In this document: positions 24,078 to 44,979 of the stretch, one piece after another
Layout: the number at the start of each line of letters is the position of its first letter
Numbering within the stretch: position 1 is the stretch's first letter
DNA from: Schmidtea nova
Taxonomy: Eukaryota
Direction of reading: 5' to 3'
NCBI GenBank assembly: GCA_044892505.1
Contig: CM097882.1
Span: forward strand, 244,528,001 to 244,592,000
Length of the DNA: 64,000 nucleotides
The notes under the pieces: generated by a model
Seen by the model: only the letters and a program-made list of their open reading frames with translations
The model's database searches: none
What the model was told of the DNA's origin: nothing
Position numbers and translations under genes: made by a program

Positions 24078-24166
24078 TCTGTAATTTACAAATTTACACT
24101 TGTTATACTACACGTTTATTGTTGTTGTCGATTTTTACACTTTATTTACAGGGTCGTTCATTCTGA

Positions 24167-25579: not shown

Positions 25580-25668
25580 TCTACAACGATATTTACATCA
25601 ATTTCCCCATATTTTTGATTTTTCTGGTTCTTTATTTACACGTATTTACACAATTTTCCGCTTATTCA

Positions 25669-26019: not shown

Positions 26020-26142
26020 TGTTTTTCTAGATTATATACATCATTCTCTTTTTTCTGTTTTTATGTTTTATAATATTTATACCCATACGTATACGGTTAT
26101 GCATTGGTTTTTACACTATTATTTACACTCATATTCCACCCT

Positions 26143-29100
26143 CTATACAATCACCACTGGTTTTCCTTCGTACAGTTCTTCGTCCTCGATCTGTACCCAC
26201 ATCTCTTCGTGTTTTGATCGTCTTTTCAGTTCCTCTCGTACTTCTTTTGATAGTTTTATGTTGTAGTTCGTGACCTTTACGTCTGGCCATTTTACTGCTA
26301 TGGTCTTATTTCTCATGCCATATCTCCAACATACTATCATGATCGTTATCAGTGGTATACACGCTATGAATACTCCCATGCTGATTAATCCCATTACTGT
26401 TTTTCCAATGCTCATTCTTGGAGTCTCACTTTGGTTTATCATCACGCCATATTGACCTTTCCATTCTGCTTCCCATTGTTCATATTGTTGTTGTCTCCGT
26501 CTGACTTCTTCGATCACTTTCTCTGGTTCCCATTTTTCTTGTCGATTTGGTATTGTTTCTTCCTTCTCGTTTTGTTCTCTCTTCTGACTCAATTCTCGGA
26601 ATTCTAACTTGCGGGTTCCCCCTTTTATCGTTATGTTCCTTGGCGTGTAATAGGTTTCGCACCTTTCTTGTTGATTTCCTTGTGCGTCTACTTCTTCGAT
26701 TGCACACACTTCGTATTCTGCGTTTGTTTTCAACCTCCTCATTTCTACCTCGATTGTTTCCCTTTTGTCATTTGATGTCTTTTGACAGTTTCGTGGAGAC
26801 TCTCTCATACTGTTTGGCATTAATGTCCAACAGATTTCTAGGACCTTTTTATGGATCTTCCATATTATCAGGGTTGTTGACTCTGGTTCGTTTTCTATTG
26901 TCGTCCTTTCCGTTGTTGCCTGTTGAGTTCTCTGACTGTTGGTTGTCGTGGTCCTTCTTGACTTTCTTTTCCTCTGTCGACTTCTTCCCATTTCAATCGT
27001 TCTCGTTCCGTTAATTTGCTCTGGCGTCTGGTACAGTTTGCACTCCAGGCTTCTTTGTATTATTTCTCTTATTCTTCGGATTACGCAAATTTCGTAGGCT
27101 TGTCCGACTTCGAATCCATTTAGTTGAAACGGGATTCCTCGTTCTCTCGTTCTGCATTGCGGTATTATGTTGTTGGTCGGTATTCCGATGTATTTTCTCC
27201 AACACATCCCAATTGTTCTCCGACCAATGTTTTTTATCTCCACGGTTACTACTTCATTCGCAATCGTTTCTTGATCTTGTTTCTTTCTTTTTGGGAACTC
27301 AATTATCTCCTTTGCTTGGAACACTTTACACTCGCTTGTTCCTGGTCTGTTTCCGTTTGCTGCTTTTTCCATGAGGCATAGTTCACATGTTTTCTCTGTT
27401 TCCATTTCAGTTATCTCGATTTCCTCATTTGTCTCTGCCTCTCGACTTTCTCTTGTTTCGCTGATTCCAATTACTTCATTGTTTCGTCCCCAACATCTTC
27501 CATTCGTTGTTCGTTGATCTTGGATGTTTACTAACGTCATCACGCTGATATCTATGTCCTCCATGATTCTCTTAATGAGGATTAATATTAATGCTACACA
27601 TATCAATTCTGGTTGGAATGTTAATTTGCCCGCTGGATTTTTGGTTATTCTTTCTTTCTCTGTTCGGTTTCTGATTCCCTCTTCTGCTTCGGTTTGATTC
27701 TTCCCTTTCTCTGATTCCACTTCTGTTCTTCTCGTCGTCTCTTTGCTTCTTTTCTCAATCCATTTCTGTATTTTCAGCGCTTCTGTTGCTTTGTATAATT
27801 GACATGCAGTTACTTGAGGTGCTTTTGGTTCTCCTCTCTGCTTTATTGCGCATATTATGTATGACTTTTCCTTCTCCAATCCTTTGATTTGGATGACGTC
27901 TCGCTTCAGATCTGACAATATACACTTCAGCGTATCGTTTTTCTTCAGGTTTTCTTTCCAGCATATTCTTTCATATACTTCATTTCCTCTGATTATTTCC
28001 AGCGTGACGTATTGTTTCTTGGCTTCTCCTTGCCCGATGATTGTTATCAATATCGCAATACACAACATTTCTGGTCTCAAAAGTAGACTTCCTGTTCGTT
28101 TTCCATAGTTCGCATGTTCGTCTTCTGTTCCACTGTTTTCTCGTTCTTCGGCTTCCCCTTTCTTGTCGTTTCTCGTTGGCTTCGGTTCTTCTTGTCTTTC
28201 TTTTTCATTGTCTTCGTTGTTATCTTTGTTGTCTTCTTTCTTGCTGTCACTTTTGTCGTCGAAATCTCTGTAACCACCCCCTGGTCCTTTTGAAATGTCG
28301 TCCTCGACATTAATTTCTTCAATCAATCTTTCATACGCTTGAACCGCGAGTGTGCTAGACTCGAATTCCCGTATTTCCATATCCTTGGATGGTTCTATGT
28401 CTTTTAGTCTACTTTGCTTGATTGTTTCTTTGGCATTTGCCCACTCCTTCACATACTTTCTGAACAAGTCTTTCCATCTTCCTATTCGTTCCTGTTCCTT
28501 TGAGTTGTTCGTAAATTTCAAATCTCTTCTCTTCAAGAATTCTTCTACTATCTCTGGCTTTTTGTGTCTCAATAACGCGCTTCTGATACACCAATTCTGA
28601 TTTTGTTCCATATGGTCATTGATCTTGAACGCTGGTTCCTTGGTGACTGGATTCACCCATGTTAGTAATGCTCTTGTTTTCTCTATGTCGTGTATCATTA
28701 CTGTTAGACTGAAGTTCTTTACGTTATTCGCCAGGTATTCGATATCGTCTTGCTTCTTGATGGACTTTATGAACTTGATCATCTCGAAGTTGTTCCACTG
28801 TATTGCGATGTCTATGATGGAATTATTCTTTCCATTTTTCCCTTCGATTTTTGCTCCTGCTTCGTATAACTCGTTTAGCACTTTGCAGTTCGTCTTCTTC
28901 CTCGCTGCGATTATCATGATTGTGTCTCCGTTATCATCAGCCGTGTTCATGTCTGCTTCGCATTTGACCATCGCTTTCGTTATTTCCAGCACTTCGTTTT
29001 CTTTCTTTCGACGTAATGCCCAGTGTATCGGTAGTCTTCCATCCTTTGATAAAAGGAATGCTACTGGCATTTGGTTCTTGATCGTTTCTATGTCACTCTC

Positions 29101-32100
29101 GTTATAATCCCCTTCTGCATATCTGTGCACTTTCTCTGTAATTGTTCCTAGTATTTCCAACGAATTTTTATTCTCCTTGAATTCCGATAATTTCTCCTGT
29201 GCTTTTGCCACGATTGCGTTTAATCTCTCTTGATAATCGGCTTTTGCATTGAACAACACTGCTTTGCTTCTTATTCGCGTTTGCATCTGTTTCATTCGTT
29301 GGTCTTGATACACTGCTTGTCTGAAGAATTGTCCATACTTCAATGCTTCCACCAGCTCTTTATATCGCTTGCTTATTTCTTTGTGCTGCTTTTGGATGTC
29401 ATAGAAATGTTCGAAGCTCATATCCGGATTCCATTGCTTATCACACCATTTCTTGATTAATCCGAATAGTTCTTTCTTCCTGTCTTCTAACTTGTATTCT
29501 CTTGGGTTTTCACTAACCCGTAGCGTATCTCTCGCTACTAACACTGCAAGGGTTTTTGGATCGTATGTTACTTCTAATAGATGTTTCAGTAACGCATTTT
29601 CTCCCCTTGTGAACACTTCATTACAATCTATGACCCACGAATCTCCTTCTGGTCTTTTCCACTTTAGCAATATTCTCCAGGTTTTACTGTTCTTTACCCC
29701 GATTGCTTGTTTCATGATCGATCCTCTAGTTAGTTCATTGATTTCCCACGTGGCATTTTCCGTAATATACTTTAGTATTCGGTGATTCGCTCTATCAATT
29801 GCATGATTCAAGAACGTTCGTCCTTCTTTATCTTTTGTCAACCAATTCGATCTGGTGTTTCCGAATAGCTTGATTATCTCATCGTTTCTTCCATGAATCG
29901 TCATCATCATAAGTGGAGTAATTCCTTCCCAATTCACTTTGTCAATTTCTCCTCCACCTTCGAGTATCATCTCCACGATCTCTTTCACTTTCTCGTTTCC
30001 GCTGTGCTTGATTGCATTATGTAACGCGGTATTACCGTCTTTGTCTTGTAAATTCAACGTCTGAGGGATCTCCTCTAGCAGCGTCCTTGTTATTGGATGT
30101 GCTGTTCTATCCTTCGCATAGTCCATTACATTCTTTCGAACTTCTGACAGTATATTGAAATCGTGCCACCATTTCCACTCTGGTATAATTTCTCTGGTTT
30201 TCTTTGCCAGTTCTTTGATGTCTATTATCTCCCTTCGGTTGTCTTCTAGACTTGTTTGCGGTTTTTGTTGTACTCGCAACATACTGATTCTCGCCGTCTG
30301 TGATCTTGTCATTACCCGTTTCTCTGGTAATAGAGTTACTGTCTTTGGTATTTTCCTGCATCGACATGCGTTCACGTATATTGGTCTTACCAATGGATTG
30401 TTCACCAATCGTACTCGCACGTTATTTTCATTTACTGTTGTTATTTCATATGGCCCTTTGCCTGGTCGTTGGAGTTTCTTGACCGTACCGGGTATTATCT
30501 CTGGTGTTTCGATTATCACCCAATCTCCAACTTTTAAATCATGTGCTTTCACATTCTTTTTCTGATCATGCAGATCCTTGTAACTCTCTTGATAGAACTT
30601 GATGTTTAGTTCCGCCGTTTTCCAGATTTCTTGCATTCTTTCTTTGAACTTTGTAACGTAATCGTCAACCTCCATGTACTGTGATAATGGTGGTTGGTAT
30701 TCTAAATCGATCGGTAAGTTGCAATCTCTTCCGTACATCAGTTGGAATGGACTTAGCTTTGTTGCCGCATGTATTGACATTCTGTATGCCATTAAACACA
30801 AGTTAATATACTCGTCCCAGTCAGTCTGATGTTTACTGACGTAATTCGACAGCATGCGTATCAATGTCCCATTGAATCTTTCTGTTTGACCGTTCGTTTG
30901 TGGATGGTATGGGGATGTTCGTAATTTCGCAATTCGGAAGTAATTCGTAACTTCGTCTAATATTTCACTCATGAAATTTGTTCCTTGATCCGTTAGGATT
31001 TTCTTTGGTGTTCCGTATCTGCAGCATATCTCTTCCACCAATATTCTCGCGACTGTTTTCGCTTTTTGATCCGGTATTGCGAACGCTTCTGGGAACTTTG
31101 TTAGATAGTCCGTGACTACTAATATGTATTGATTTCCCTTCAAACTTTCCGGCAATGGTCCAACTACATCCATTGCTATCGTTGCCATCGGTTCTGCAGG
31201 TATTGGCATTGGTTTTAGTGGTGTTTTCCACTTCGTTCCGACGTTCTTTCTTGTCGCACAGGTTAAGCAGTTCTTTATCCATTCCTTCACATCATCTTCC
31301 ATGGTTGGCCAAAAATACTTTTGTCTCAATCTCCCGATTGTCTTTTTCACTGACATATGTCCGCCTAATTTTCCGTCATGATATTGAGTCATGATTTCTT
31401 TTCGCCTATTCGCAGGTAAGCACATCAATCTCCGTTCTCCATCCTGTATCAATAACCATCCTTTTTCCATCACGTATCGGTGCTGATATTTCTGCATATG
31501 TTCGCGCAATACTTGGTTCTTGCCGAATATTTCTATTTCCTTTTCTTTCAAATACTGGCTGATCAGTCCCAACTCCTCATCTCCGAGTTGATCTTTCCTT
31601 AATTCGCTGAAATCCAAATCTTCCGCTATTAATGCACATATTTTTAGAGCGTTCAGGTTCACCAATTCTGGAAATATAAACCTCGACATGCAATCCGCAT
31701 TTGCATTTGCTTTTCCTGCTTTAAACTTTATGAACGGCGAGTATTCCTGTAACTGCATCGCCCAACGCATCAATCTACTTGATGATTCTTTATGTTGGCC
31801 TAACCATACCAATGGTTGATGATCCGTCGTGATATATATTTCATGACCCCACAGTAGGTACTTGAAATGCTTGATTGCCAATATTATCGCATAGGCTTCT
31901 CTTTCCGTGACTGAGTAATTCCTTTCATGTTTCCTGAAGGTTCGACTGTAATATCCGATTACTCTCTCTTTGCCTTCTTCATCAAATTGGCCTAGTACTG
32001 CTCCTGCTGCGTATCCACTTGCATCTGTTGCCAACAAAAATGGCTTCTTAAAATCTGGATGGACTAATATTGGCGCTGTAATCAGCTTGTCTCGTAATGT

Positions 32101-35100
32101 CTCAAATGCTGCTTGCTGTTCTGTTCCCCACACAAACGACACGTCTTGTCTTACTAATTCTTGCATTGGCTTTGATATTCCTGCATAGTCCTTGATGAAT
32201 TTTCGATAATATCCACACAATCCCAAAAATTCTTGTATTTGAGTCACTGTCTTTGGTGGTGGACATTCTTTGACTTTTTCGATATTCCTTGGATCTGGTT
32301 CTTTTCCTTTTGCTGATACAATGTGACCTAAAAATGTCACTTTCTCTTTTGCCCAATCGCACTTTGACGGCTTCAATTTCAGTTTCCACTGTCTTAATTT
32401 CACGAACACATTTCTGATGTCTTGTAAGTGATCTTCAAATGTTGCGGAGTAGATCAATAGATCGTCGATATACACCATGCATTGTTTTATGCCATGTGTT
32501 ACGAAATTCATGCATCTCTGGAATGATGCTGGCGCGTTTGTTAACCCAAACGGCATTTTCTTGAATTGGTACAGATCTCGTCCGATTGTAAATGCTGTCT
32601 TTTCTTTATCCTCGTCTTTCATTTTGATCTGCCAATATCCGCTTTTTAAATCTAGTGACGTGAAATAAGCTGCTCCTTGTAACGTCAATAACATTTCGTT
32701 TATATCTGGCAATGGGTACGTATCTCTTTTCGTAACTGCATTCAACCGTCTGTAATCGATACAGAATCTCTGAGTTCCATCCTTCTTTTTTACCATCACC
32801 ACTGGGAATTGCCAGGGTGAGCAACTAGGTTCGATGACCTCTGCATCTAACATTTTTTGTACTTCTTCTTCTGCTACTGCTTTTTGGGCTTCTGCCAATT
32901 TGTATGGTCGTAATGCTATTGGCGTTTCGTCCGTCAACGGTATCGTGTGTAATGTTACATCACATGTTCCCAAATCTAAATCTGATGCTGCAAATATATC
33001 TTTATATTCCATCAACAGTTTCTGTAACTGTTCTTTTTGTCGTTCGTCTAACAACACACTGTCGATTTTCCATGGTAATTCGCCTTTGCCTTTCTCATTC
33101 TTGTCTGGTATTTCGATTTCGGACATTGGTGTCAATTTACCCAATCTCTCATTCTCGTATATTATCTTGTCCTCTTCGTCGAAATTTACCAGATTGATCG
33201 GTATTTCTCCTTCCTGGTTTATCGTAACCAATTCTCTTGCCATTGGTAATTCTTTCTTTGCTTCGAACTTCTTACTTGGTTCGAATATCATATCTCCTTT
33301 TATTGTCGAATCGATCTTGACATAGCACATCATTTCGTGCCTCGCTGGCACTACTATTTGTTCCGCACTTGCCACTTTAACTTTCATTCTGCAGATTTTT
33401 CCTGTCCTATCTTTTAGTTTCATTGCTCCTAGATCAATTACGATTTCCTTGAACAGGTCTGGCATCAGGTCAGTTCCAATAATACATGGTACACTCAGCG
33501 ATGGTATTACAGCGATGTACGTGTTGATCTCTGCACCTCGATGCTTAATTTTTACAAACCATCTTCCGGCTACTTCTACTGTCTCTTGACTGCACGCGAT
33601 TACATGTACATTCGTCTTCTCGATTTCTCCTTGATTTTTCTCTGGTATATAATTAATGTCGATCGCCGAAATATTCGCGCCTGTATCGATCATAGCTTCG
33701 ATTTCTCTTCCATTTATTTCTACGGTTGTTGTTAAAATCGGTCCCATATTTGTGGACATAACCGCTATCGTATGCGTGTCTTTTAACGAGTTTACACTTC
33801 CACCTCGTTTTACTTTGCATCCTTCTGGAATTATCGGGTATATACTTGTCATCGGCATCATCTGCATCATATTCGGCTTCGCTTTGTATATCGGTTCGTT
33901 ATACATTGACTGAGGTGGAGCGCTGTATCTCCAATTCTCAACTGCACTCTTTTCGTTATACTGTGGAATCTGGTTTATATTCGCTTGTCCTCCTCGATCG
34001 TCATCGTCATCATCATCATTGCTTGAGTCATCTTGCGTTCGATATCCTCTCACTCTTTCCCATAATCCTTTCCTTTCTTTCTTTAGTTGTCGCCTTGCTT
34101 GTTCATCTTGCATTATCTTTTTGAATTTCCTTCCGACATCTTCATTTGTTCCTCTCATTTTTGCAAGTATCTTCAACAACCTCTTTATTCGATGTATGTC
34201 TTTTGAGTGTCCGTGTAACACCATCGTTTTCGCAAGGAATGGTAAAAACCCTACTACCATTTTCCAATTCACTTTCTTTTCTCTCTTGTAGATGTCGAAA
34301 CACGCTAACATTTGCGTTATTATCACTCTGACGATTTGTATAATCAATATAACACCCAGTATTCCAGCCATCATTTGTCCAAAGATCAGGAATCTTCCCC
34401 ACATTGCCTTCATCATATTTTCCGTAGCTTTTTTGAAATGTGCCGGTGACAACAGCAGTTCGTAATTCGGTCCTTCTCGATAATCCGTTCCTCCCGTTAT
34501 CGTTACGATATTTGACAGTAATGCTTCTCTTCTTGCCGGGAATAATATATTCTGCCTTGCTGCTTCTAAATCCTTTGGACTATAGATTCCGTTGTTTGAG
34601 ACATCTACGTCACTGAACTGTCTATCCTTTGACAACTGCATTAGCTCAAATTCTCTTGGTGCTAATACTTCAGTTCTTCCTGGGAACATAACCCATTTGC
34701 CATCTGGCTTCTGATAAAGCGGTCCGTACGCGTTACTACAGTTGAATGGATTTGGTTCAAACCCTGGTGGATTGATGATTCTCGTCACCGGTTGAACGTA
34801 TCGTACTTTTCCTTTATAATCGATTTCTAGTTCGTTTGTACATTGTCCAGGTTTCAACTGCGTTGTTGCTGCTAGCGATGCGTGTGTCTTTTCGCAAATG
34901 TATACGTACATTGCTTCTCCGACCACTCTTCCGAAATGTCCTTCTCTCAGTGGTAATAATGGCATCGCGCTATCTGGATTCGTAATCGCTACGGCCAACT
35001 TTGTCTTTAATATTTCCCGATTCAGTATGCAATCGTTATTTATCAGATCATAGTACACTTTTTGCAATGAGGCTTGTCCTCTATGGAATAAGAAATCCAT

Positions 35101-38100
35101 TTTATTATTCACATACAAGTGTAGCTTGATATCCATTGTGTCGATCTTGGGTTTCGCATTCGGCACTTCTTGTTTTGACACGTATATTCCTGGATAGTTT
35201 GTTTCGTATACTGTGGTACTGCACTTAAGGGTTGCTTTCCCTTTTATGAATCTCATGCCCACATCCTGATTTGTGGTTATCAACACTGTAGGTGTGGTTC
35301 TCATCTCTATCCGTTTTTCTCTATGATCTGGCTTCAATTGTCTTTTATTCTCTAACGCTTCTTTGAGATGTTTTGCTCTAGCTTTGTCATCATCGTCTTC
35401 TTCTTGGAATGTTTTCCCTTGAATTTCGTCGAACTTTGCTCCTTGTAGCAGTTGTAATTGACATTCGTTCACTTTTGGTTTATACACCAATGTTGACATT
35501 CCCGTTTGACACATGCTTCTGTCAATTTTACACATGGATAACGTTTTCATTTCTCCTGTTGTTGGTTCGAAGAATGCTTCGTAGCTTTTCAGTTCGACTA
35601 TATACGTATCCATTACCACTAGGTTGGTTGCAGGTACTCCAAATATCGGATAGGTTTCTCCTTGACAATACCCTTCTCCTCCCGTAATTCGTCCTGCTAC
35701 ATAATACGTCTGCTGCAACATCATTCCTGGCTTTCCTTTTATCTTGATTTTATCTCTCGTTGTCACTTCTCCATGCTTGAATAATGCTTCACAGTCTTCT
35801 CCTTGTAACACGATTGGTTCTCTTTCGGTTCCTGGCATGACAATTGCTGAATAATGTCCTCTCCCACAATAGAATGCGAATCTCGTCTTCTGTACCTTGC
35901 ATTCATTCACCATTGTCTTTATTAGTTCTGCCTCTTGATACACGTGATACCATTGTTCCTTTTTGATCTCTTTCAATTCTACTGGAGTTGCATCTTTGCA
36001 CTGCTCCGTACCTCTCAATGAGTACTTTTCTCCCAATTTCATTTGATCACAATCAAATACCTCGAACGTTGTTACACCTTCTGTGCTTAACAACCATACT
36101 AACATCATCATGATTATCGAGTTTAAATTCAACGTCGATCTCCCGTTTCCTTGCATCGTTTGTCTATTCTCCATTTCTCTCAATACTCCTTCGAGTTTCT
36201 TTCTCATAACGTTAGACCCTTCTTTTGTCTGGTTCTCTTTTATGAACTTTTCCCATCCTCCTTTTCTGAGGATATATGGTTCAATTTCCTTCTCGATAAT
36301 CATCGCCGTACTCTTGATATGTCTTCCCATCGGACTTGACTTCGGACTTCCTCGGCTTAGCGTTAGCAAATTGTATATCGTATACGAGATTGCTACTAGA
36401 TATTTGCTATCCGTCTCTGCTCCGTTAAGTAGCCTTTTTACCAACATCGTGGTTCCTTGCCAATCTAGATGATTCGATTTTGTTTTCGCCTTAATCAATT
36501 CTGGCATAATCGGTGCTATTGCATTGTGTAGCATCCTTGCCTTTGTACTAGGTTCGTTTATCCGCCACAAATTCTTTAATTCCGGGTCGATTATCGCTAA
36601 CACATCCATTATCGTTTTGGTGAGCCATTCCTCTCCTTGGCAGACTTGATTCTCCTCCTTGCCTCTGATTTCTGCGATTTTATCTAATTTCTTCAAGCAA
36701 ATCTCCCATTGCTCTTGTCTCCTTTCTTCCCTTGATTTTAGGATTGTTGTTGCTGGATCTGTCTTTGGTCTTCCTCTTGGTCGTTTTTCCATTCCGGTTC
36801 CCGTTTCTACAAATCTCACTGCTCTTCCCGTTTCTTCTGTAACATCTCTTCCTTCGTTCGCTCGCTGTTCTAACCATCTTTCCATTTCTTGAGTAAACTG
36901 GGGTTGTTCTTGCTCGTCTTCCGATTCGTTTACCATTTCTATGACTACCTCCTGTTCCACTCCTTGATCGTCGATTTCTGCTGGTGACGTTATTGGCATC
37001 TCTATTATTCTGTCAAAGATGTTCGCTGTTGGTTTTTGAGTCAACTTCGTTAATTCCTCTATCGCTTCATCACTGTCTGTTAGTATCTCATCTACGTCAT
37101 ACGCTTCTGGCGGTGTTCCCTCTCTGATTTTTACTGGCATTGTCCTTGTTTGTCCCGAACTTGTTCCTGGGGTCATTGTTGACTTCATCGGACTTGGTGT
37201 ACTCATGCTTCCCTTCGCTTTCTTTTCCTCTTTAAACTTCAGTGGTTGACCCACTATCTGTGCCACTGTTAGCGTATTCATTAGATCCAATTGCACTGGT
37301 GTCAGCCAGATTTCCAAACTATTATCCAACGATCGTCCTTGATGTTGCAGGTGGAATGGTAGTTCGTACATCAGTTTCTCTTTAACACTCTTCACTTTTT
37401 CTGTTAGCATCACCCAAAACTCTTCTTTTCTTTGATTCGGATACATTATCCTCAAATGTATTTTCTGTGGCGTTTCCTCCGCAAACTCTTTGTTTCTCCA
37501 CTTTTTTATTACGTCGTCTAGTTGCTCTGGACACCACTCGTTAACTCTCTTGTATTCTGCTATCGCCTTAGCTACTTTTCTCAAGTTCGTTATGTCTTCT
37601 CCATTTGAGATTATGAAACCTGCTAAGCCTTTTATTGTTTGTCTTTTTCCCCGAGTATTTCCTCTCAACCGCTCGATCAATTCACTCGTTTTCTGTTTCT
37701 CCAATTCTGCCCATATTACTGCAGTTTCTGGTCCGTCTAAGTCCGTTGGTAGTAACCTCCTTGTTACCATACATATTCGTTTCGTATTCCGTTCATATCT
37801 GTCTTCTCCTTCCGGATCTTCTTCATACACGCCTCTTTTCACTTTCCAACATTTCTCTTTGTTATCCCATTGTTTCTCTACTGGCGTCAATCGTCGTCTG
37901 TTGAGATCCAATTCTCCCAATATTGTCTCCCATTCTGGCTTCATCTGCCAGTTCCGATAGATTTCTACTATCTGTCTCAGCTTGCGCATAACGTCCTCTT
38001 GTCGTTTCTTTTTCCTTTCCTCATCTCTTGGTGTTGCTCTTGGCACATCATCCATTCTGATGACGTGTATTGTCTGATAATTATCCCATATGCCGATTTT

Positions 38101-41043
38101 GTACGCTCGTCTTTCGTCACGTTCGTTCAGTAGATGTTCTTTGTATTTTATCGCAATGTCATCCTCAAATTCGTCTTCCCGTTCTCGTTGCAATATCTTC
38201 TCGTTGATGACCTCTACTATTTCTCCCACTTTACTATCTGGTATTACCTCAATTTGTCTTGTCTCTTCGTTTGGTAATCTCACGGTAATCTTCAGATCTG
38301 ATACTTCTCCTCGTCTAAACATTTCTTTTCCTATCTTTGCGATTAGCTTGTCCGTTTTGAAATTCGAATGTCTCGTTTGACTTGTATCTCGTATGTTCTC
38401 GATACATTGCTTCAAATTCTCATACTCGCTTTTCGTCAGTTCCTTTCGATGTTTCTTGATTTGTTGGATGATCTGTTCTATCATCGTATTCAAATTCTCT
38501 GCCAAGATTCTTTCTTTTGCCTCTACCAACTGAGGTTTTATTCTCATCTCGTAACACGTATTCGCTTCTTTGATGATTCCTTGTAAGTTCTCTTCCTTCT
38601 TGGTGTTGCATATAGATAACGTTGTTATTTCTCCTGGCCAGATGCCTGTATCTATCATATGCGTTCCCTTTTTCACCAATCCGTTTTCCGAATATATGAA
38701 CTTGTCTTTGTACGAGCTTCCCAATCTGTCCTCAACCCATCTGTAAATTCCATCCGTCATTGGGTTCCTTATCCAGATTCTCGGTGAACACTCGTTTATC
38801 CATATCTGTATTATGTATTCGTTGAGTGGTTCTTTCAATAACTTCTCTATGAACTCTTGTATTACCCTCACTTCTCTTTCTTGTAACCACTCTTTGTACT
38901 TCATTTGCCATACTGCTCGTATAAACTTTCGGTATCGTTTCGTGTCAATAAACTCCTCGTTATGGATTACTTCCAACGCGTTATCCATCAGCTTCTGAAT
39001 TTCGTCTTCCGTTACTGACACTGTTTCCATCGTCTCAACTACTTCCATCTTTTTGTCCTCGTTTTCCGGTTCCTTTAGCATGTCTCCTGCCAGACTGCTA
39101 ACTTCGCTGTTGTCTTCTTCATCTGACAACTCTTGTCTTGGGTGTCTTAGCATCCCAATATGTGCGGTTGGTCTTGTTTCGTTTTTGCTAACTTCTTGTA
39201 TTAGTTCATTCTCGTTTCCTGTTACTTCAGCTTTTCCCATTCTTTTCTCCAACTCCTCTATTTCTTCCAACCGTCTTCGTCTTATTTTTCCCTTGAATAT
39301 TCGACTGATCCGAGTTTGATGTTTCACTGGTGGGGGAATTTTCTCCGGTTCCACCTCTCTGATGATCATCACGTTTATTTTCGTCTCCGTTACTCCCATA
39401 TCTTCCCATATATCGGTCATCTTTAACTTCACTTCTGGCAAATCCTCTGTTTGTAGGAATGCTTCTCTGGGCAGTTTCGTCACTCCCGGAATCATCTCAT
39501 TTACTTTATTGAACAATCTTCCCACTTCTTCTTTTACATCGTATTTGAATCGCCACACGTGATCATTCGGCATGATCACCAACATTCCTCTTTGTTTGAT
39601 TCTCACTTCCTCTTCTTGATTCGTTTCTTTTTCTGTTTCTTTTTCTGTTTCTGTTTCTTTTTCTTCTTCTTCATCTTTTTGATTCTGCTCTGTAGTTTCT
39701 ACTTCCTGACTCACTTCTTCTTGTTTCTGCTCTTCGTTTCTTTTCTCTTTAACTTCTAACTCGTCTGACTCATCCTGCTGCTTCTCTTCCATCATTGCTC
39801 GCATCATGTTGATCCTTGGATTTCCCTTTTTTAACTGTTGTAATCGTTGTTGCCTGACTTGTTCTTCTTCTCGTCGTACTCTAGCCCATTCTTGATTATG
39901 TTTCTGTTGACTCTCTCTGTTTTCTCTTTCGGCCTCAGCTTCTATTAACTGGATCATGTTTATCTTTGGTTGAGCAGCTTGTTGGCTTCCCTTTGCCATG
40001 CTTTCGATTATCTCGTGTAATCTGGATACCTCCTGTCTCAACTTAGCTTCTTTCATACTAGCTTCGTTTGCACTGCTGTTTGGGTTGTTCCGTTGTTGAC
40101 CCTGATTCCCATAGCTTGGTCGATTCCCGTAATTCGGTCTATTTCCACTGTTTGACCAACTTCTCTGTTGATTACAATCTCTTGACATGTGTCCGGTTTT
40201 TCCACATGTGTAACACGTTTTCCCATAACATCGATTTTCTGAGTGACCTTTTTGTCCACACAGTTTACAGGCTACATTCTGGAAACACTCTTGTTGCCAA
40301 TGTCCGTTTTTCCCACACGTCTGACATTGCCTATTCTGCCTGTCATTGTAACTATTTCCTCCATTCGTATTCACCGTAATATATCCGTTATTCTTCCTCG
40401 CTGGCGGTTCTTTGAACAATCTCTGCGAATGGGGAATACTTTGATTCATGTTTCTTTTTCCTTGTTCTTCATCTTCTGTCGTTTTTCCCATTACCGCCGT
40501 AATTCTCATGTCGTTCATTTCCATATGCAATTCGAATAGGTTGGCTGCTTCCAACGCTTCATCTACTGTTTTACATCCTTTGCATCCCACTTGTGCTCTG
40601 ATGTCAGGTCTCCTGAGACCTCGTACGAATAACGCTGTCATCAATTCTTCGTCTACTGGATTTCCTCTGTTAAATGCCAGTTTCGCCAACTTTCTTAATT
40701 CACTTGCGTACACTGCATTTGACTCGTTTCTCCTCTGTTTTCTTGCTGAGAACTCATCAAACGCTTCGTTCAACACTTTATTTATCCCAAACGTCTGTTG
40801 GAAGAACTCCTTGATTGCTTCCCACGTTCTGGGTGGATTACTTCCCGATCTCTTCTCAATATACAGATCCAATGCGCTATCTTTCAAGTATAGCGGGATT
40901 CGATTCGCTAACGTTTCTGCACTCCATCCGCATATATCCACGAATATGCCAAATTCTTTCAGGAACGTGTCCAATCTACTGGCGTCTCCATTAAATGGTT
41001 CGCCCTTGAATTTTTCTCTTAGATCTTCTCTGTGATCACTCAT
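26143..41043 (-). CDS. gag-pol: 4966-aa Gag-accessory-Env-Pol-accessory polyprotein
   Basis: Single open frame with CA-like N-terminus, 3 CCHC knuckles, DTG protease, YIDD RT, RNase H (TDAS), HHCC and DDE integrase, plus extra domains listed separately. Confidence 0.97.
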   Translation of the reverse strand: MSDHREDLREKFKGEPFNGDASRLDTFLKEFGIFVDICGWSAETLANRIPLYLKDSALDLYIEKRSGSNPPRTWEAIKEFFQQTFGINKVLNEAFDEFSARKQRRNESNAVYASELRKLAKLAFNRGNPVDEELMTALFVRGLRRPDIRAQVGCKGCKTVDEALEAANLFELHMEMNDMRITAVMGKTTEDEEQGKRNMNQSIPHSQRLFKEPPARKNNGYITVNTNGGNSYNDRQNRQCQTCGKNGHWQQECFQNVACKLCGQKGHSENRCYGKTCYTCGKTGHMSRDCNQQRSWSNSGNRPNYGNRPSYGNQGQQRNNPNSSANEASMKEAKLRQEVSRLHEIIESMAKGSQQAAQPKINMIQLIEAEAERENRESQQKHNQEWARVRREEEQVRQQRLQQLKKGNPRINMMRAMMEEKQQDESDELEVKEKRNEEQKQEEVSQEVETTEQNQKDEEEEKETETEKETEKETNQEEEVRIKQRGMLVIMPNDHVWRFKYDVKEEVGRLFNKVNEMIPGVTKLPREAFLQTEDLPEVKLKMTDIWEDMGVTETKINVMIIREVEPEKIPPPVKHQTRISRIFKGKIRRRRLEEIEELEKRMGKAEVTGNENELIQEVSKNETRPTAHIGMLRHPRQELSDEEDNSEVSSLAGDMLKEPENEDKKMEVVETMETVSVTEDEIQKLMDNALEVIHNEEFIDTKRYRKFIRAVWQMKYKEWLQEREVRVIQEFIEKLLKEPLNEYIIQIWINECSPRIWIRNPMTDGIYRWVEDRLGSSYKDKFIYSENGLVKKGTHMIDTGIWPGEITTLSICNTKKEENLQGIIKEANTCYEMRIKPQLVEAKERILAENLNTMIEQIIQQIKKHRKELTKSEYENLKQCIENIRDTSQTRHSNFKTDKLIAKIGKEMFRRGEVSDLKITVRLPNEETRQIEVIPDSKVGEIVEVINEKILQREREDEFEDDIAIKYKEHLLNERDERRAYKIGIWDNYQTIHVIRMDDVPRATPRDEERKKKRQEDVMRKLRQIVEIYRNWQMKPEWETILGELDLNRRRLTPVEKQWDNKEKCWKVKRGVYEEDPEGEDRYERNTKRICMVTRRLLPTDLDGPETAVIWAELEKQKTSELIERLRGNTRGKRQTIKGLAGFIISNGEDITNLRKVAKAIAEYKRVNEWCPEQLDDVIKKWRNKEFAEETPQKIHLRIMYPNQRKEEFWVMLTEKVKSVKEKLMYELPFHLQHQGRSLDNSLEIWLTPVQLDLMNTLTVAQIVGQPLKFKEEKKAKGSMSTPSPMKSTMTPGTSSGQTRTMPVKIREGTPPEAYDVDEILTDSDEAIEELTKLTQKPTANIFDRIIEMPITSPAEIDDQGVEQEVVIEMVNESEDEQEQPQFTQEMERWLEQRANEGRDVTEETGRAVRFVETGTGMEKRPRGRPKTDPATTILKSREERRQEQWEICLKKLDKIAEIRGKEENQVCQGEEWLTKTIMDVLAIIDPELKNLWRINEPSTKARMLHNAIAPIMPELIKAKTKSNHLDWQGTTMLVKRLLNGAETDSKYLVAISYTIYNLLTLSRGSPKSSPMGRHIKSTAMIIEKEIEPYILRKGGWEKFIKENQTKEGSNVMRKKLEGVLREMENRQTMQGNGRSTLNLNSIIMMMLVWLLSTEGVTTFEVFDCDQMKLGEKYSLRGTEQCKDATPVELKEIKKEQWYHVYQEAELIKTMVNECKVQKTRFAFYCGRGHYSAIVMPGTEREPIVLQGEDCEALFKHGEVTTRDKIKIKGKPGMMLQQTYYVAGRITGGEGYCQGETYPIFGVPATNLVVMDTYIVELKSYEAFFEPTTGEMKTLSMCKIDRSMCQTGMSTLVYKPKVNECQLQLLQGAKFDEIQGKTFQEEDDDDKARAKHLKEALENKRQLKPDHREKRIEMRTTPTVLITTNQDVGMRFIKGKATLKCSTTVYETNYPGIYVSKQEVPNAKPKIDTMDIKLHLYVNNKMDFLFHRGQASLQKVYYDLINNDCILNREILKTKLAVAITNPDSAMPLLPLREGHFGRVVGEAMYVYICEKTHASLAATTQLKPGQCTNELEIDYKGKVRYVQPVTRIINPPGFEPNPFNCSNAYGPLYQKPDGKWVMFPGRTEVLAPREFELMQLSKDRQFSDVDVSNNGIYSPKDLEAARQNILFPARREALLSNIVTITGGTDYREGPNYELLLSPAHFKKATENMMKAMWGRFLIFGQMMAGILGVILIIQIVRVIITQMLACFDIYKREKKVNWKMVVGFLPFLAKTMVLHGHSKDIHRIKRLLKILAKMRGTNEDVGRKFKKIMQDEQARRQLKKERKGLWERVRGYRTQDDSSNDDDDDDDRGGQANINQIPQYNEKSAVENWRYSAPPQSMYNEPIYKAKPNMMQMMPMTSIYPIIPEGCKVKRGGSVNSLKDTHTIAVMSTNMGPILTTTVEINGREIEAMIDTGANISAIDINYIPEKNQGEIEKTNVHVIACSQETVEVAGRWFVKIKHRGAEINTYIAVIPSLSVPCIIGTDLMPDLFKEIVIDLGAMKLKDRTGKICRMKVKVASAEQIVVPARHEMMCYVKIDSTIKGDMIFEPSKKFEAKKELPMARELVTINQEGEIPINLVNFDEEDKIIYENERLGKLTPMSEIEIPDKNEKGKGELPWKIDSVLLDERQKEQLQKLLMEYKDIFAASDLDLGTCDVTLHTIPLTDETPIALRPYKLAEAQKAVAEEEVQKMLDAEVIEPSCSPWQFPVVMVKKKDGTQRFCIDYRRLNAVTKRDTYPLPDINEMLLTLQGAAYFTSLDLKSGYWQIKMKDEDKEKTAFTIGRDLYQFKKMPFGLTNAPASFQRCMNFVTHGIKQCMVYIDDLLIYSATFEDHLQDIRNVFVKLRQWKLKLKPSKCDWAKEKVTFLGHIVSAKGKEPDPRNIEKVKECPPPKTVTQIQEFLGLCGYYRKFIKDYAGISKPMQELVRQDVSFVWGTEQQAAFETLRDKLITAPILVHPDFKKPFLLATDASGYAAGAVLGQFDEEGKERVIGYYSRTFRKHERNYSVTEREAYAIILAIKHFKYLLWGHEIYITTDHQPLVWLGQHKESSSRLMRWAMQLQEYSPFIKFKAGKANANADCMSRFIFPELVNLNALKICALIAEDLDFSELRKDQLGDEELGLISQYLKEKEIEIFGKNQVLREHMQKYQHRYVMEKGWLLIQDGERRLMCLPANRRKEIMTQYHDGKLGGHMSVKKTIGRLRQKYFWPTMEDDVKEWIKNCLTCATRKNVGTKWKTPLKPMPIPAEPMATIAMDVVGPLPESLKGNQYILVVTDYLTKFPEAFAIPDQKAKTVARILVEEICCRYGTPKKILTDQGTNFMSEILDEVTNYFRIAKLRTSPYHPQTNGQTERFNGTLIRMLSNYVSKHQTDWDEYINLCLMAYRMSIHAATKLSPFQLMYGRDCNLPIDLEYQPPLSQYMEVDDYVTKFKERMQEIWKTAELNIKFYQESYKDLHDQKKNVKAHDLKVGDWVIIETPEIIPGTVKKLQRPGKGPYEITTVNENNVRVRLVNNPLVRPIYVNACRCRKIPKTVTLLPEKRVMTRSQTARISMLRVQQKPQTSLEDNRREIIDIKELAKKTREIIPEWKWWHDFNILSEVRKNVMDYAKDRTAHPITRTLLEEIPQTLNLQDKDGNTALHNAIKHSGNEKVKEIVEMILEGGGEIDKVNWEGITPLMMMTIHGRNDEIIKLFGNTRSNWLTKDKEGRTFLNHAIDRANHRILKYITENATWEINELTRGSIMKQAIGVKNSKTWRILLKWKRPEGDSWVIDCNEVFTRGENALLKHLLEVTYDPKTLAVLVARDTLRVSENPREYKLEDRKKELFGLIKKWCDKQWNPDMSFEHFYDIQKQHKEISKRYKELVEALKYGQFFRQAVYQDQRMKQMQTRIRSKAVLFNAKADYQERLNAIVAKAQEKLSEFKENKNSLEILGTITEKVHRYAEGDYNESDIETIKNQMPVAFLLSKDGRLPIHWALRRKKENEVLEITKAMVKCEADMNTADDNGDTIMIIAARKKTNCKVLNELYEAGAKIEGKNGKNNSIIDIAIQWNNFEMIKFIKSIKKQDDIEYLANNVKNFSLTVMIHDIEKTRALLTWVNPVTKEPAFKINDHMEQNQNWCIRSALLRHKKPEIVEEFLKRRDLKFTNNSKEQERIGRWKDLFRKYVKEWANAKETIKQSRLKDIEPSKDMEIREFESSTLAVQAYERLIEEINVEDDISKGPGGGYRDFDDKSDSKKEDNKDNNEDNEKERQEEPKPTRNDKKGEAEERENSGTEDEHANYGKRTGSLLLRPEMLCIAILITIIGQGEAKKQYVTLEIIRGNEVYERICWKENLKKNDTLKCILSDLKRDVIQIKGLEKEKSYIICAIKQRGEPKAPQVTACQLYKATEALKIQKWIEKRSKETTRRTEVESEKGKNQTEAEEGIRNRTEKERITKNPAGKLTFQPELICVALILILIKRIMEDIDISVMTLVNIQDQRTTNGRCWGRNNEVIGISETRESREAETNEEIEITEMETEKTCELCLMEKAANGNRPGTSECKVFQAKEIIEFPKRKKQDQETIANEVVTVEIKNIGRRTIGMCWRKYIGIPTNNIIPQCRTRERGIPFQLNGFEVGQAYEICVIRRIREIIQRSLECKLYQTPEQINGTRTIEMGRSRQRKRKSRRTTTTNSQRTQQATTERTTIENEPESTTLIIWKIHKKVLEICWTLMPNSMRESPRNCQKTSNDKRETIEVEMRRLKTNAEYEVCAIEEVDAQGNQQERCETYYTPRNITIKGGTRKLEFRELSQKREQNEKEETIPNRQEKWEPEKVIEEVRRRQQQYEQWEAEWKGQYGVMINQSETPRMSIGKTVMGLISMGVFIACIPLITIMIVCWRYGMRNKTIAVKWPDVKVTNYNIKLSKEVREELKRRSKHEEMWVQIEDEELYEGKPVVIV
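26330..28068 (-). other. C-terminal membrane module: two signal/TM-like segments, about four FN3-like repeats, final TM
   Basis: IKGLEKEKSYIICA, ITEMETEKTCELC, LNGFEVGQAYEICV, MRRLKTNAEYEVCA match the FN3 L-x-x-L-x4-Y-x-V strand; TM VMGLISMGVFIACIPLITIMIVCW. Confidence 0.6.
28765..30054 (-). other. Two clusters of about three ankyrin repeats (29760-30054 and 28765-29052)
   Basis: DKDGNTALHNA, NWEGITPLMM, DKEGRTFLNHA; KDGRLPIHWA, DDNGDTIMIIAA, GKNNSIIDIA. Confidence 0.88.
30400..31400 (-). other. Integrase (HHCC, DDE, GPY/F)
   Basis: HDGKLGGH..CLTC; MDVVGPLP; TDQGTNF; HPQTNGQTERFN; GPYEI. Confidence 0.96.
31680..32060 (-). other. RNase H
   Basis: LATDASG, YSVTEREA, TDHQPL, NANADCMSR. Confidence 0.95.
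32310..32970 (-). other. Reverse transcriptase
   Basis: SPWQFPVV, RFCIDYRRLN, LDLKSGYWQI, MPFGLTNAPASFQR, YIDD (32461-32472). Confidence 0.97.
33400..33740 (-). other. Aspartic protease
   Basis: EINGREIEAMIDTGANIS (DTG at 33679-33687), IIGTDL. Confidence 0.93.
34200..36120 (-). other. Envelope glycoprotein (chuvirus G / herpes gB-type class III fusogen-like) in the polyprotein
   Basis: Internal signal-like SIIMMMLVWLLS; FDC...YSL...C start; Cys-rich ectodomain with CILNREILKTKLA, GEAMYVYIC, CTNELEIDYKG..YVQPVTRII, C..AYGPLY..W; TM at 34297-34392. Confidence 0.8.
36238..36708 (-). other. Bcl-2-like domain in the polyprotein
   Basis: Multi-helical region ending in BH2-like PYILRKGGWEKF; BH1-like DWQG is weak. 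Confidence 0.7.
37249..37461 (-). other. Ubiquitin/SUMO-like domain 2 in the polyprotein
   Basis: IHLRIMYPNQRKEEFWV..TEKVKSVKEKL..FHLQHQGRSLDNS..L..MNTLTV. Confidence 0.55.
38053..38295 (-). other. Ubiquitin-like domain 1 in the polyprotein
   Basis: LKITVRLPNEETRQIEVIPDSKVGEI...IAIKYKEHLL..GIWDNYQTIHVI follows a beta-grasp pattern. Confidence 0.6.
40174..41043 (-). other. Gag capsid plus three CX2CX4HX4C zinc knuckles
   Basis: PFNGD..FL..F; W..IKEFF..TF; KQRRNES..Y; LFVRGL; CQTCGKNGHWQQEC, CKLCGQKGHSENRC, CYTCGKTGHMSRDC. Confidence 0.93.
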
Positions 41044-41917
41044 CCCGATTCCACTATCTTGGAATGCTGTACTAGTTTTCTTTACTTCTAGTTCACCACT
41101 TGTTTCTGAATTCGACTCTTCTTCTTCGCTACTCTCTGTTTCGTTATCTCTTGATTCGCTTCTTGTTCTGTTTTCCCTGACTAGTTCACTGTCTATCGTC
41201 TCTACTTCGTTTTGTACTTCTAGATCTTCTGGGGTTTCTTCTTGATTCTCTTTATTACTCGAATTATCGCTGATCTCTACTTGTTTGTTCTTTTGTTGCT
41301 TAGGCTTGTTACCTGTTCTTGTCCTTTTCGCTGCTTTTCTTTCTGCTTCCGTTAAGATTGGTATTATACCTGATCTTGTTTCTCGTCCCTCAATTTTGTC
41401 TATTCCTCAACTGCTTATATTCTCAACTGCTTTTCTACTCCGCTTTTGCTTTGCTTCTTCTTTGATTTGTTTCTTTTGATTGCTCTGACTGCTAGATTGC
41501 TTTGAATTGCTTGATTGATTTGTTTCCTTAAAACAAATAATCACTTACACGATACGTCCCCGTTATCGTGTTTCTCGTCCCTCTCACGGGTGTAGTCATA
41601 ATTCATGAAGATCCCCATTTTTCAAATTTCCCTTGATTTTAAGTCTATTTAAATTATCTATGCAGTCGCATCAATTATCTATTCTTTATCAAATACACCA
41701 ATTACTTTTCCCCAGTTCCCCAATTACTTTGTCGCTCAGCGCTCTTATTATCCCCTTTACTTTTCTCAGGCTTCTCTGGCTCTGAGTTCAAATTTCCCCT
41801 TATCTGTCGACTACTCTGTTTCTCGACTATTCGCTTTATCTCCTATTCACACTACGTTTACTACTTCATTTCAATTCTCATCTCTACTCACCTTTAATTC
41901 GACTGACATCTCTCGTT

Positions 41918-42384
41918 GGCCTGCTGGGCTTTCCAGTCAGCGCCTTTCATCTCACCTTTTATCTCGACTTTATTACTCTCAACATCACTCATTATCTCAT
42001 TAGCCTGCTGGGTTTTCCAGTCAGCGCTTTTAATCTCACCTTTTATTGTTATCTCGTTACTCTCGACCACGACTGTCGTTTCATTAGCCTGCTGGGTTTT
42101 CCAGTCAGCGCTCTTGTTATCCTCCATTTATCTCTTTACTGTCGACTTTTAACTGCTCTTGACTCCGATGATCATCACTTTTGACCTGCTGGGTCTTCCA
42201 GTCAGCGTCCTCACTTTCACCACTTTATTATTACTCACTTTTATTCTCTCGATCTTTCCTGATCGTTATCATTGACCTGCTGGGTTTTCCAGCTAGCGTC
42301 TTTACCACTTTACCTGTCTTAACAAACCGGTTTTATTTTACTCTCTTCGAATCTCATGGTCTGCTGGTTTTTCCAGTCAGCACC
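41918..42384 (-). ncRNA. Array of six 27-nt bulged stem-loops (putative cis-acting RNA element)
   Basis: Copies at 41918, 42002, 42086, 42183, 42274 and 42358; consensus NNN-G-CTG-A-CTGG-(5-nt loop)-CCAG-CAG-NNN with covarying basal stems. Confidence 0.7.
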
Positions 42385-42710
42385 CTTCACTTACTCACTT
42401 TACTTTGCTACTCCTCCTTGTATGCATACTTTAACATCATTAGGCCACATAATCAGCTTTACTCGCATTTATCAATACCCAGGTGCGCACCTTCAACTCT
42501 CTCATTATTACCTCGGTTTCTTTCAACCCTTATTCCTCATTATTCGCTATTCATTTTCACTATTCATCATTTATCCTCATTATTATTTATTCATCTCCAT
42601 TATCGCTTGTTGATCTTCACTATCCGGATAGTTTTATACTTTATTTAGTCCTCATCTGCCTCACTTCGTCGTCTTTCTCGTGGGCTTTTACTCAATATTT
42701 TATTTCGAAC

Positions 42711-44960: not shown

Positions 44961-44979
44961 AATCCCGGCTGAGCCCCCA
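44961..44979 (-). promoter_or_regulatory. Primer-binding site, tRNA-Pro type
   Basis: TGGGGGCTCAGCCGGGATT, 6 nt after the 5' LTR; two mismatches to the MLV Pro PBS TGGGGGCTCGTCCGGGAT. Confidence 0.85.

Follow-up and report, generated by a model that had tools for sequence, protein, structure and literature searches.

The element and its polyprotein

The window, by which we mean the whole 64,000-nucleotide stretch of DNA that was analysed, contains a complete LTR element of 29.1 kb on the minus strand (19010..48117), with a 4-bp TATA target-site duplication at both sides. All features of the element given below lie on that strand. The 5' LTR (3,131 bp, 44987..48117) and the 3' LTR (3,115 bp, 19010..22124) both run from TG to CA, and they are near-identical, differing by 3 mismatches in 3,115 aligned bases and by one 16-nt indel. 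The primer-binding site (44963..44980) is an 18-nt match complementary to the 3' end, plus CCA, of a genomic tRNA-Pro(TGG). Two accessory ORFs flank the main frame: an upstream one with a C-terminal RING finger (43968..44438; PF13920, E 7e-9), and a downstream TRAF-like one with RING, TRAF zinc finger and MATH (24167..25597; PF22486, E 8.5e-27). The LTRs, target-site duplication and tRNA primer site, together with an order of protease, reverse transcriptase (RT), RNase H and integrase, are features of Ty3/Gypsy elements; we concluded that this is a Burro-type giant Ty3/Gypsy LTR element.

The main frame, ORF1, is open from stop to stop for 5,087 amino acids (26143..41406), with its first methionine at aa 122 (position 41043). 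It begins with Gag (40171..40896), which comprises a Retrotrans_gag capsid region (PF03732, E 2.6e-6) and three CCHC zinc knuckles (PF00098, E 2e-9, and motifs). A Bcl-2-like domain follows (36232..36609), with a BH2-like GGW motif at its end; a profile of eight families matched Bcl-xL weakly (E 7e-5), and six of the eight family members matched PF00452 weakly, below the cut-off, with no match for the window's own copy. The end of this domain is 48 aa from the hydrophobic core of the envelope (env) signal described below. Beyond env lie an aspartyl protease (33457..33729; PF00077, E 5e-9) with its DTG at aa 2574 (33687-33679), the reverse transcriptase, RNase H and integrase in Ty3/Gypsy order (30847..32793; PF00078, PF17917, PF17921, PF00665), and ankyrin repeats (28765..30066; PF12796, E 3e-19).

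An earlier, sequence-only reading of the window had placed env in frame between Gag and protease within a single gag-env-pol frame, and both claims held: env lies inside ORF1 upstream of the DTG, and no stop interrupts 41406-26143. The order was correct, but Gag and env are not adjacent, as about 1,350 aa separate the last zinc knuckle from the env signal, with the Bcl-2-like domain at their end. The minus-strand orientation of env was missing from that reading.

ORF1 ends in a second membrane module (26323..28089), recognized by hydropathy as a signal-like stretch, FN3-like repeats and a TM helix. Its low-confidence model (pLDDT 47) matched FN3 arrays (best E 1e-4), and FN3 led in Atlas with a score of 0.79. 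A search for homologues of the module found none among 5,430 candidates at E 0.001 within 296-944 aa. One hydrophobic stretch inside the module (aa 4599-4615) has no explanation in the topology that we propose.

Fold and membrane signals of the envelope segment

The env ectodomain spans 555 aa (aa 1781-2335; 34402..36066), slightly shorter than the 570 or so first claimed, and is preceded by a signal and followed by a TM helix, as had been proposed. Its description as Cys-rich stands in part: there are 14 cysteines in all eight families, a constant number but a modest 2.5% of residues. The ectodomain of this element's family (family A) carries one N-glycosylation sequon.

Several comparisons agree on the relationships of this segment. 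It matched Pfam PF24664, Monjiviricetes_fusion, with 248.7 bits (cut-off 27; E 1.1e-73). The AF2 model (pLDDT 89.5) has the elongated five-domain fold with a long core helix, here of 48 residues, by which class III is recognized. In Foldseek searches the best BFVD match was chuvirus G (E 9e-39; TM 0.64-0.69 among the best matches listed), and the PDB matches listed were herpes gB throughout (best E 4e-14). By VIA, the model scored Z 10.5 against postfusion gB and Z 6.3-6.7, with rmsd 37-42, against prefusion gB. A single env compared with PDB sequences by phmmer returned three chance matches alone, so a profile was needed; the profile of 98 env sequences then gave gB for 39 of 40 PDB sequences among the matches listed, on the central helix (best E 4e-4). 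Two hairpin loops adjoining the conserved ectodomain cysteines C70 and C137 fit, as judged by position alone, the two hydrophobic fusion loops that class III proteins have at the tip of domain I. A trimer prediction of three copies of residues 300-535, made without an alignment, scored 0.00, and its fold is uncertain. From the modelled fold we concluded that the ectodomain is a class III fusogen of chuvirus-G/herpes-gB type; this had been suggested from motifs in the sequence-only reading, and in the structural comparisons chuvirus G and postfusion gB matched best.

The putative internal signal peptide occupies aa 1757-1780 (36067..36138), with an h-region at aa 1764-1773 and a predicted cut after aa 1780. 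The signal was scored by our own hydropathy scan in place of SignalP or DeepTMHMM, and its h-region is short (10 residues). In all 23 polyproteins compared, the h-region lies 18-25 residues ahead of the first env cysteine, similar to the spacing in free-standing viral G proteins, where the first cysteine falls at a median of 26.5 (74 of 86). Small residues at -3/-1 follow the h-region in 23/23, at an identical offset in 22. Among 165 windows of ORF1, two matched the env signal in hydrophobicity. The membrane-proximal and transmembrane helix (aa 2336-2368; 34303..34401; hydropathy 2.55) is helical in the AF2 model and is kept across the eight families. About 17 aa beyond it comes another conserved hydrophobic stretch, which has a proline at its centre; if this stretch spans the membrane, Pol would be lumenal and the model proposed below would need a third span. 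Judged from the protein sequences, an internal env signal with a switch of topology is the best reading.

An REKR motif (aa 2029-2032; 35311..35322) sits in a variable, charged loop and is not conserved. It was said to occur in this copy only; the sister copy does lack it, but family C has it too, and the remaining 19 of the 21 homologues do not. We rejected it as a furin site: R-x-K/R-R occurs in 2/21 loops, both of one env lineage, and what comes next is a polar stretch, not a hydrophobic peptide. The env thus differs from the F-type (class I) Env of gypsy/errantiviruses, in which a hydrophobic fusion peptide follows the furin site.

Conservation of env and its exchange between families

We scored 75 genomic copies from 3,672 candidates, all of them 99-100% identical. 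The env was free of stops in 74 of the 75, and 22 had an open frame of at least 5,076 aa. With copies this alike and env open in nearly all, the fusion is not the accident of a single copy. Every element family found has an env, and young copies are numerous in the genome; env lay upstream of the protease in 10 of the 18 long database matches scanned. The sister copy in the window (family B; plus strand, 4..9063) has the Bcl-2-like domain, env, protease, RT, RNase H and integrase. Its order is the same, as had been stated, but it is broken by stops, a change of frame and a 1.5-kb gap in homology.

Comparison of the env of families A and C over 555 codons gave Sd 113.5 and Nd 11.5, for a dN/dS of 0.023. 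The value for A and B was 0.058, near saturation, and comparisons with families D-H were saturated and unusable. All 14 cysteines and the fold are retained among env homologues at 37% identity. We concluded that env is under strong purifying selection; this shows that env matters and is silent on its role. A tally within the family over 30 copies (183 shared synonymous variants in env vs 7 shared replacements) was not relied on, as it is biased by the choice of copies as best scorers to the env query.

The families have also exchanged env. A block of this element (34207..36039) is shared with family C at 92.6% nucleotide and 98.4% amino acid identity, whereas its flanks are 68-77% identical at the nucleotide level. 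The RT tree, built from the element families alone, paired B with C, whereas the env tree paired A with C; both groupings are starred. Shared-state sites agreed: upstream of env, 568 united B and C vs 207 for A and C, and in pol 288 vs 146, but within env A and C shared 371 and B and C 55. The same pattern recurred in 4/4 family C copies. We concluded that the env of family A passed into family C in one piece, beginning at the mature N-terminus and ending shortly beyond the TM helix, and the dN/dS of 0.023 indicates constraint since then. The family comparison was prompted by contigs of four runs of one study, in which summed depth over env was about doubled; we do not count this as evidence, and no joint at the env borders was seen among the matches listed for these contigs.

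Proposed processing of the polyprotein and relation to known systems

Our best explanation, to which we give a probability of roughly 60%, is that env serves a Burro-type element as its working entry protein, was acquired long ago from a chuvirus/monjivirus-type negative-strand RNA virus, and is made as part of a polyprotein threaded through the ER. Full-length RNA would be translated into one polyprotein, and Gag and the Bcl-2-like domain would emerge in the cytosol. The internal env signal would then carry the ribosome to the ER, where signal peptidase would cut after about aa 1780 and part Gag from Env-Pol, while the ectodomain crossed to the lumen and formed disulfides. Because the env TM helix would stop transfer, the tail, protease, RT, RNase H, integrase and ankyrins would stay cytosolic until a second signal sent the FN3-like module into the lumen. 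With Gag parted from Pol by this cut, Pol could not be packaged as a Gag-Pol fusion. The leftover signal, which occupies the place expected of a Bcl-2 tail anchor, may instead tie Gag to the ER, and Pol would hang from Env's tail, so that Gag and Env-Pol could meet at one membrane and bud with Env outward. The element's protease would then release the enzymes, and Env would carry particles from cell to cell, with stem or germ cells as possible targets.

A wider reading, which we offer tentatively and believe somewhat less than its negation, is that Burro elements are endogenous enveloped viruses whose single chain crosses the ER at least four times and yields capsid, fusogen, enzymes and, as a second surface protein, the FN3-like module. 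Its further parts are equally tentative: that Pol is packaged via Env's tail, a route that we know of in no retroelement, that the signal doubles as a Bcl-2 tail anchor, and that env modules sweep through families in the manner of an adaptive cassette for entry.

The polyprotein could have two fates, with the internal signal often skipped to give a cytosolic Gag-(env)-Pol and ordinary non-enveloped particles, and only a translocated fraction yielding Env. This could coexist with the ER-threaded model. The short h-region, far from the N-terminus, would suit it, and every other LTR element, to our knowledge, packages Pol through Gag; we nevertheless think it unlikely, as signal and cut site are retained in 23/23 polyproteins and a cytosolic ectodomain with 14 cysteines would probably be misfolded bulk in the precursor. 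A little less probable is a role for Env on the host cell, in cell-cell fusion or to host benefit, in place of particle entry. The element does bear Bcl-2-like, RING, TRAF-like and FN3-like cargo, and a mutualism of Burro1 with an anti-apoptotic role is cited in PMC13465017. Against such a role, env occurs in every family of a genome with many young copies, and its move as a block fits an advantage to the element; nor did a lone domesticated copy come up in the course of these comparisons. We give still less credence to a distinct subgenomic, spliced or trans-spliced RNA, with its 5' end a little ahead of the signal, as the main source of Env. Env would then behave like any type I membrane protein, and the gag-env junction would be open solely for Gag-Pol to be read through. 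In flatworms, AUG forms the end of the spliced leaders, and 14 of 23 polyproteins have a methionine within 25 aa before the h-region, but the other nine, family B included, have none there; across the eight families an acceptor-like site was not above background and had no common frame, and the product would remain Env fused to Pol. Finally, although the in-frame position does bar stops and frameshifts, the reading of env as a passenger, with a frame that stays open only to keep Pol translated, can be set aside, since replacements are removed too (dN/dS 0.023) and the 14 cysteines and fold persist at 37% identity.

The layout was implicitly presented as new in the sequence-only reading, but it has been described already. 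In 2019 planarian Burro elements were reported to carry env in frame, with a BCL2-like domain before it and the protease after it (PMC6431247), and in 2026 GAG-ENV-POL elements whose env is of gB type were reported from flatworms, nematodes and bryozoans (PMC13524379), so the main finding is already in the literature. The contribution of this copy, its sequence suggests, is an env that works and remains under selection in a family that has been expanding recently, together with a testable model of processing. If the ER-threaded model is true, reverse transcriptase can be packaged with no need of a Gag-Pol fusion, and the way in which gB-type retroelement envelopes bring about entry, which section 11 of PMC13524379 calls unknown, can be tested in a tractable animal.

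Burro/GYPSM1 as described in PMC6431247 shares with this element a length near 30 kb (here 29.1 kb), a single ORF of some 5,000 aa (5,087), a Gag with 2-3 CCHC knuckles (three here), a BCL2-like domain, env before the protease, the PR-RT-RH-IN order, ankyrins and MATH/TRAF. Unlike in that description, TRAF/MATH is encoded here by an ORF of its own, downstream of ORF1, and a Pfam scan of ORF1 and six accessory frames gave no match to BIR or dUTPase, which Burro has. That paper likened Burro env to gypsy Env by HHpred and noted mononegavirus glycoprotein matches, whereas we find a class III fold; its section 7, on Burro, makes no mention of a C-terminal FN3-like module or of env exchange. The GAG-ENV-POL errantiviruses with HSV/gB-type ENV of PMC13524379 (Platyhelminthes, Nematoda, Bryozoa) share gene order and fold, and a furin site 'not always conserved', as here; six Schmidtea env sequences in its supplement resemble our families by eye. 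Its passages on these elements do not discuss single-frame processing or topology, and the paper stresses infrequent env recombination, whereas we see env exchanged cleanly between two families within a single genome. Added here are the signal in 23/23 polyproteins, the A-to-C block swap with its dN/dS of 0.023, and the C-terminal module; none was in the literature searched, and Grohme 2018, Sacco 2022 and Lee 2026 may cover them.

Pao/BEL elements with chuvirus-type env (PMC13524379, section 14) use the same glycoprotein family but carry env after pol, 3' of integrase, whereas env here precedes the protease. Two such matches (P0052, P0078) fell among viral-type proteins, apart from the polyprotein group. 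The env tree (FastTree) took in 16 envs from polyproteins, the first 36 of the 86 free-standing proteins that start with Met, and two pol-env fusions. The 16 polyprotein envs all lay on their own side with support 92; as the sequences were all found by likeness to the query, with no clade test, the tree does not show a single origin or the donor. Chuvirus/Monjiviricetes G (PF24664) shares with env the fold, the cysteine pattern, a signal followed by an x-D-C motif and a C-terminal TM, but is free-standing, about 650 aa long with an N-terminal signal, and 20-29% identical to env. Herpesvirus gB has its arrangement of domains and its core helix in common with env (Z near 10 over some 410 aligned residues) at 10-13% identity; gB requires gH/gL, and no such partner is indicated for this env. 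Flavivirids are RNA viruses with a class II envelope protein, and the likeness to them is an analogy in working, not homology: in HCV core-E1 the capsid protein ends in the envelope's signal (PMC5402940), and the capsid part is left anchored in the ER after the signal peptidase cut, as we propose for Gag.

The family A element and its polyprotein

The intact LTR element of the window, which defines family A, spans 29.1 kb (48117-19010, minus strand). Between its 3.1 kb LTRs we counted 3 mismatches over 3,115 bases plus a single 16-nt indel; its target-site duplication was TATA, and a genomic tRNA-Pro(TGG) has a 3' end that matches its primer site. From this we concluded that the element inserted very recently. 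Genes for the matching tRNA lie in a tandem array of 308-bp period (G000:C1:459609706-459648402, stretch L109), and the tRNA-Pro(TGG) pattern had 1,113 matches genome-wide. The LTRs contain open frames of about 220 aa (20792-20130, 46785-46123 and 46026-45370, minus strand) with no Pfam match of weight, and the leader between the 5' LTR and ORF1 holds a tandem array with a 19-nt unit, as well as imperfect repeats of greater length (42671-42972 and 41904-42389).

The sequence-only reading placed an envelope glycoprotein (env) inside the polyprotein, between Gag and protease, and this arrangement was confirmed in a single 5,087-aa frame, ORF1 (stop to stop, 41406-26143, minus strand). Along ORF1 we found the Gag capsid with three CCHC knuckles (aa 171-412), a Bcl-2-like domain (aa about 1600-1725), and env, with its signal (aa 1757-1780), ectodomain (aa 1781-2335), TM (aa 2336-2368) and tail; the DTG of the protease (aa 2574) lies C-terminal of the tail, followed by RT, RNase H, integrase, ankyrins and a second signal-ectodomain-TM module. 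The ~1,200 aa between knuckles and Bcl-2-like domain had no Pfam match. A small ORF upstream of ORF1 (44438-43968, minus strand) ends in a RING finger of IAP type; no BIR domain was matched in it. Downstream of ORF1, an intronless TRAF-like ORF (RING, TRAF zinc finger, MATH; 25597-24167, minus strand) is shared with family B (L104:1498-2904). Two accessory ORFs precede the 3' LTR: a 396-aa coiled-coil protein (24107-22917, minus strand) and a 173-aa frame that opens with a signal-like segment and also contains a coiled coil and a TM (22849-22328, minus strand); the weak GP41 match of the latter frame (E 0.002) fell below the cut-off.

The sister copy (family B, 4-9063, plus strand) is broken, yet has the domain order of family A, as had been claimed. 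A 1.5-kb stretch between its RNase H and integrase (5459-6984) is possibly a nested mobile element; the 432-aa plus-strand frame within it had no Pfam match. Elsewhere the window contains an 860-aa hAT-type transposase frame (DUF4371, Dimer_Tnp_hAT; 15757-13175, minus strand) flanked by 14-nt tandem arrays (12876-13007 and 16295-16454), a DDE_1 transposase fragment (17523-16951, minus strand), a frame starting with part of a ubiquitin domain (61415-60897, minus strand) that adjoins a 390-nt direct repeat (60336-61025), and an AT-rich satellite-like array (54265-58952) with units of about 200-240 bp.

All 75 genomic env matches that we scored, a subset of 3,672 candidates genome-wide, were 99-100% identical to the family A env; env lacked a stop in 74, and 22 had an open frame of at least 5,076 aa. 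The in-frame env is thus not an accident of one copy. The genome holds at least seven further families, named by longest common frame length (B, that of the sister, 5,140 aa; C, 5,685; F, 4,993; D, 3,401; E, 3,393; G, 3,345; H, 3,442). Their env identities were 37-98%, and in each the protease lies in frame downstream of env. Env matched 853 representatives in the public protein set. Among 18 long database proteins scanned, env was N-terminal of the protease in 10, five of which also had RT, and a Gag motif preceded env in three. Several database polyproteins of this type (P0005-P0008) have two or more protease-like stretches C-terminal of env.

Ectodomain fold and the REKR motif

The proposed kinship with chuvirus G and gB held up at both profile and structure level. 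The ectodomain matched Pfam PF24664 (Monjiviricetes fusion glycoprotein, E 1.1e-73), and herpesvirus gB made up 39 of the 40 PDB sequences listed in a 98-sequence profile search, matching on the central helix. An AlphaFold model (pLDDT 89.5, pTM 0.68) showed long beta-hairpins and a 48-residue core helix. Among the best Foldseek matches, those in PDB were all gB (best E 4e-14) and the best viral models were chuvirus G (E 9e-39). VIA-align scored postfusion gB at Z 10.5 and prefusion gB at Z 6.3-6.7 (rmsd 37-42), with Z 6.2 for thogotovirus GP. These matches make the ectodomain a class III fusogen by its fold, modelled in postfusion shape. It has 14 cysteines in all eight families, and sequons are sparse (one in family A, 1-2 in the others).

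REKR, read earlier as a furin-like site found in this copy only, falls within a charged loop whose length varies and where model confidence is lower. R-x-K/R-R occurred there in 2 of 21 aligned sequences, those of families A and C, which form one env lineage. The motif is therefore unlikely, from its distribution, to be a needed furin site; it is indeed absent from the other 19 sequences, but is common to the family C env.

The internal signal and a model of processing

We predicted the signal by our own hydropathy and -3/-1 scan of 23 polyproteins (8 families and 15 database proteins). In all 23, the first env cysteine follows the start of a 10-residue hydrophobic core by 18-25 residues, which is where free-standing viral G proteins have their N-terminal signal (first-Cys median 26.5 in the 74 of 86 proteins whose motif falls within the first 60 aa). 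Windows as hydrophobic as this core numbered 2 of 165 in ORF1. Small residues stood at -3/-1 in 23/23 with four offsets allowed, and in 22 at one offset. A second hydrophobic stretch C-terminal of the env TM is also conserved.

A BH2-like GGW lies 30-62 aa ahead of the core in 13 of the 23 polyproteins. The other 10 have none within 90 aa ahead of it, which makes the env signal independent of this motif. Bcl-2 proteins carry a tail anchor past the domain; given the GGW ahead of the core, the leftover signal would occupy that place, and by analogy the segment may serve as both env signal and Bcl-2 tail anchor.

We propose that the nascent polyprotein would be inserted co-translationally at the internal env signal, at the end of which signal peptidase would cut. 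The ectodomain would then fold in the lumen, the env TM would act as stop-transfer, and Pol would stay cytosolic beyond it until a second insertion at the C-terminal module. The usual route of retroelements is a Gag-Pol fusion; here, because the cut would fall between Gag and Env-Pol, Gag and Pol would be parted during synthesis. The leftover signal would keep Gag on the membrane and Env's TM would keep Pol there, so that capsid, enzymes and fusogen would be in one place for budding, and the element's own protease would finish processing. For this model as a whole we would put the probability at about 0.6.

Partial skipping of the internal signal is the strongest competitor, though an improbable one, and a role of env directed at the host is slightly less probable still. 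Somewhat below these we place production of env from a separate RNA: a Met within 25 aa ahead of the core in 14 of 23 polyproteins would suit it, but no splice acceptor-like site ahead of the signal rose above background in the eight families.

The second membrane module (28089-26323, minus strand) forms the C-terminal end of ORF1, past the ankyrins. In families A-F (comparison stretches L078, L080, L105, L107, L074 and L076) ORF1 ends with a signal-like stretch and a 320-540-aa ectodomain followed by a TM, and family C carries two such modules in tandem. The family A model was poor (pLDDT 47) and matched FN3 arrays (best E 1e-4); Atlas hits, taken as leads only, were FN3 proteins (score 0.79), and the protein search gave no homologue of 296-944 aa among 5,430 candidates at E 0.001. 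The module may serve in attachment or in signalling to the host.

Exchange and selection of env, and comparison with known systems

Families A and C shared 68-77% DNA identity over gag, Bcl-2-like region, tail, protease and pol, versus 92.6% (98.4% aa) over aa 1790-2400. The common block (36039-34207, minus strand, against L079 and L101-L103) has sharp borders, one within about 15 codons past the predicted signal cut and the other just beyond the juxtamembrane stretch, and both were alike in all four family C copies. The trees disagreed accordingly, RT pairing B with C and env pairing A with C; this comparison covered A, B and C, the env and RT trees of D, E and H being poorly resolved. Because B and C were 82-83% identical in the flanks and 75% in env, the same as A and B, family C must have received the block, from the A lineage or a close relative.

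Since the exchange, the A and C ectodomains have come to differ by 113.5 synonymous and 11.5 replacement changes over 555 codons (dN/dS = 0.023, Nei-Gojobori, one pair). That env is a passenger is hardly credible: Pol downstream could by itself explain an open frame, but it would not force this loss of replacement changes.

The family A element shared with Burro, the giant planarian Ty3/Gypsy elements, its size, single large ORF, Gag knuckles, Bcl-2-like domain, in-frame env, ankyrins and MATH/TRAF domain, while BIR and dUTPase had no Pfam match in ORF1 or the six accessory frames scanned. For Burro1 an anti-apoptotic role is cited in PMC13465017. A gB-type env in frame between gag and pol is already published: PMC6431247 places the Burro env in frame between a BCL2-like domain and the protease, and PMC13524379 describes GAG-ENV-POL elements whose ENV is of HSV/gB type from Platyhelminthes, Nematoda and Bryozoa; six Schmidtea envs are among those that the latter lists. 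Our search, which did not extend to key primary papers, found no paper on env exchange or an FN3-like module, nor, among the 12 of 87 matches listed, on signal-peptidase processing of these polyproteins. What goes beyond the known layout is the selection on env (dN/dS), the block exchange, and the second module with the packaging model, all of which merit follow-up. For the first junction of that model, Gag/Env, the HCV core-E1 junction (PMC5402940) would offer an analogy.
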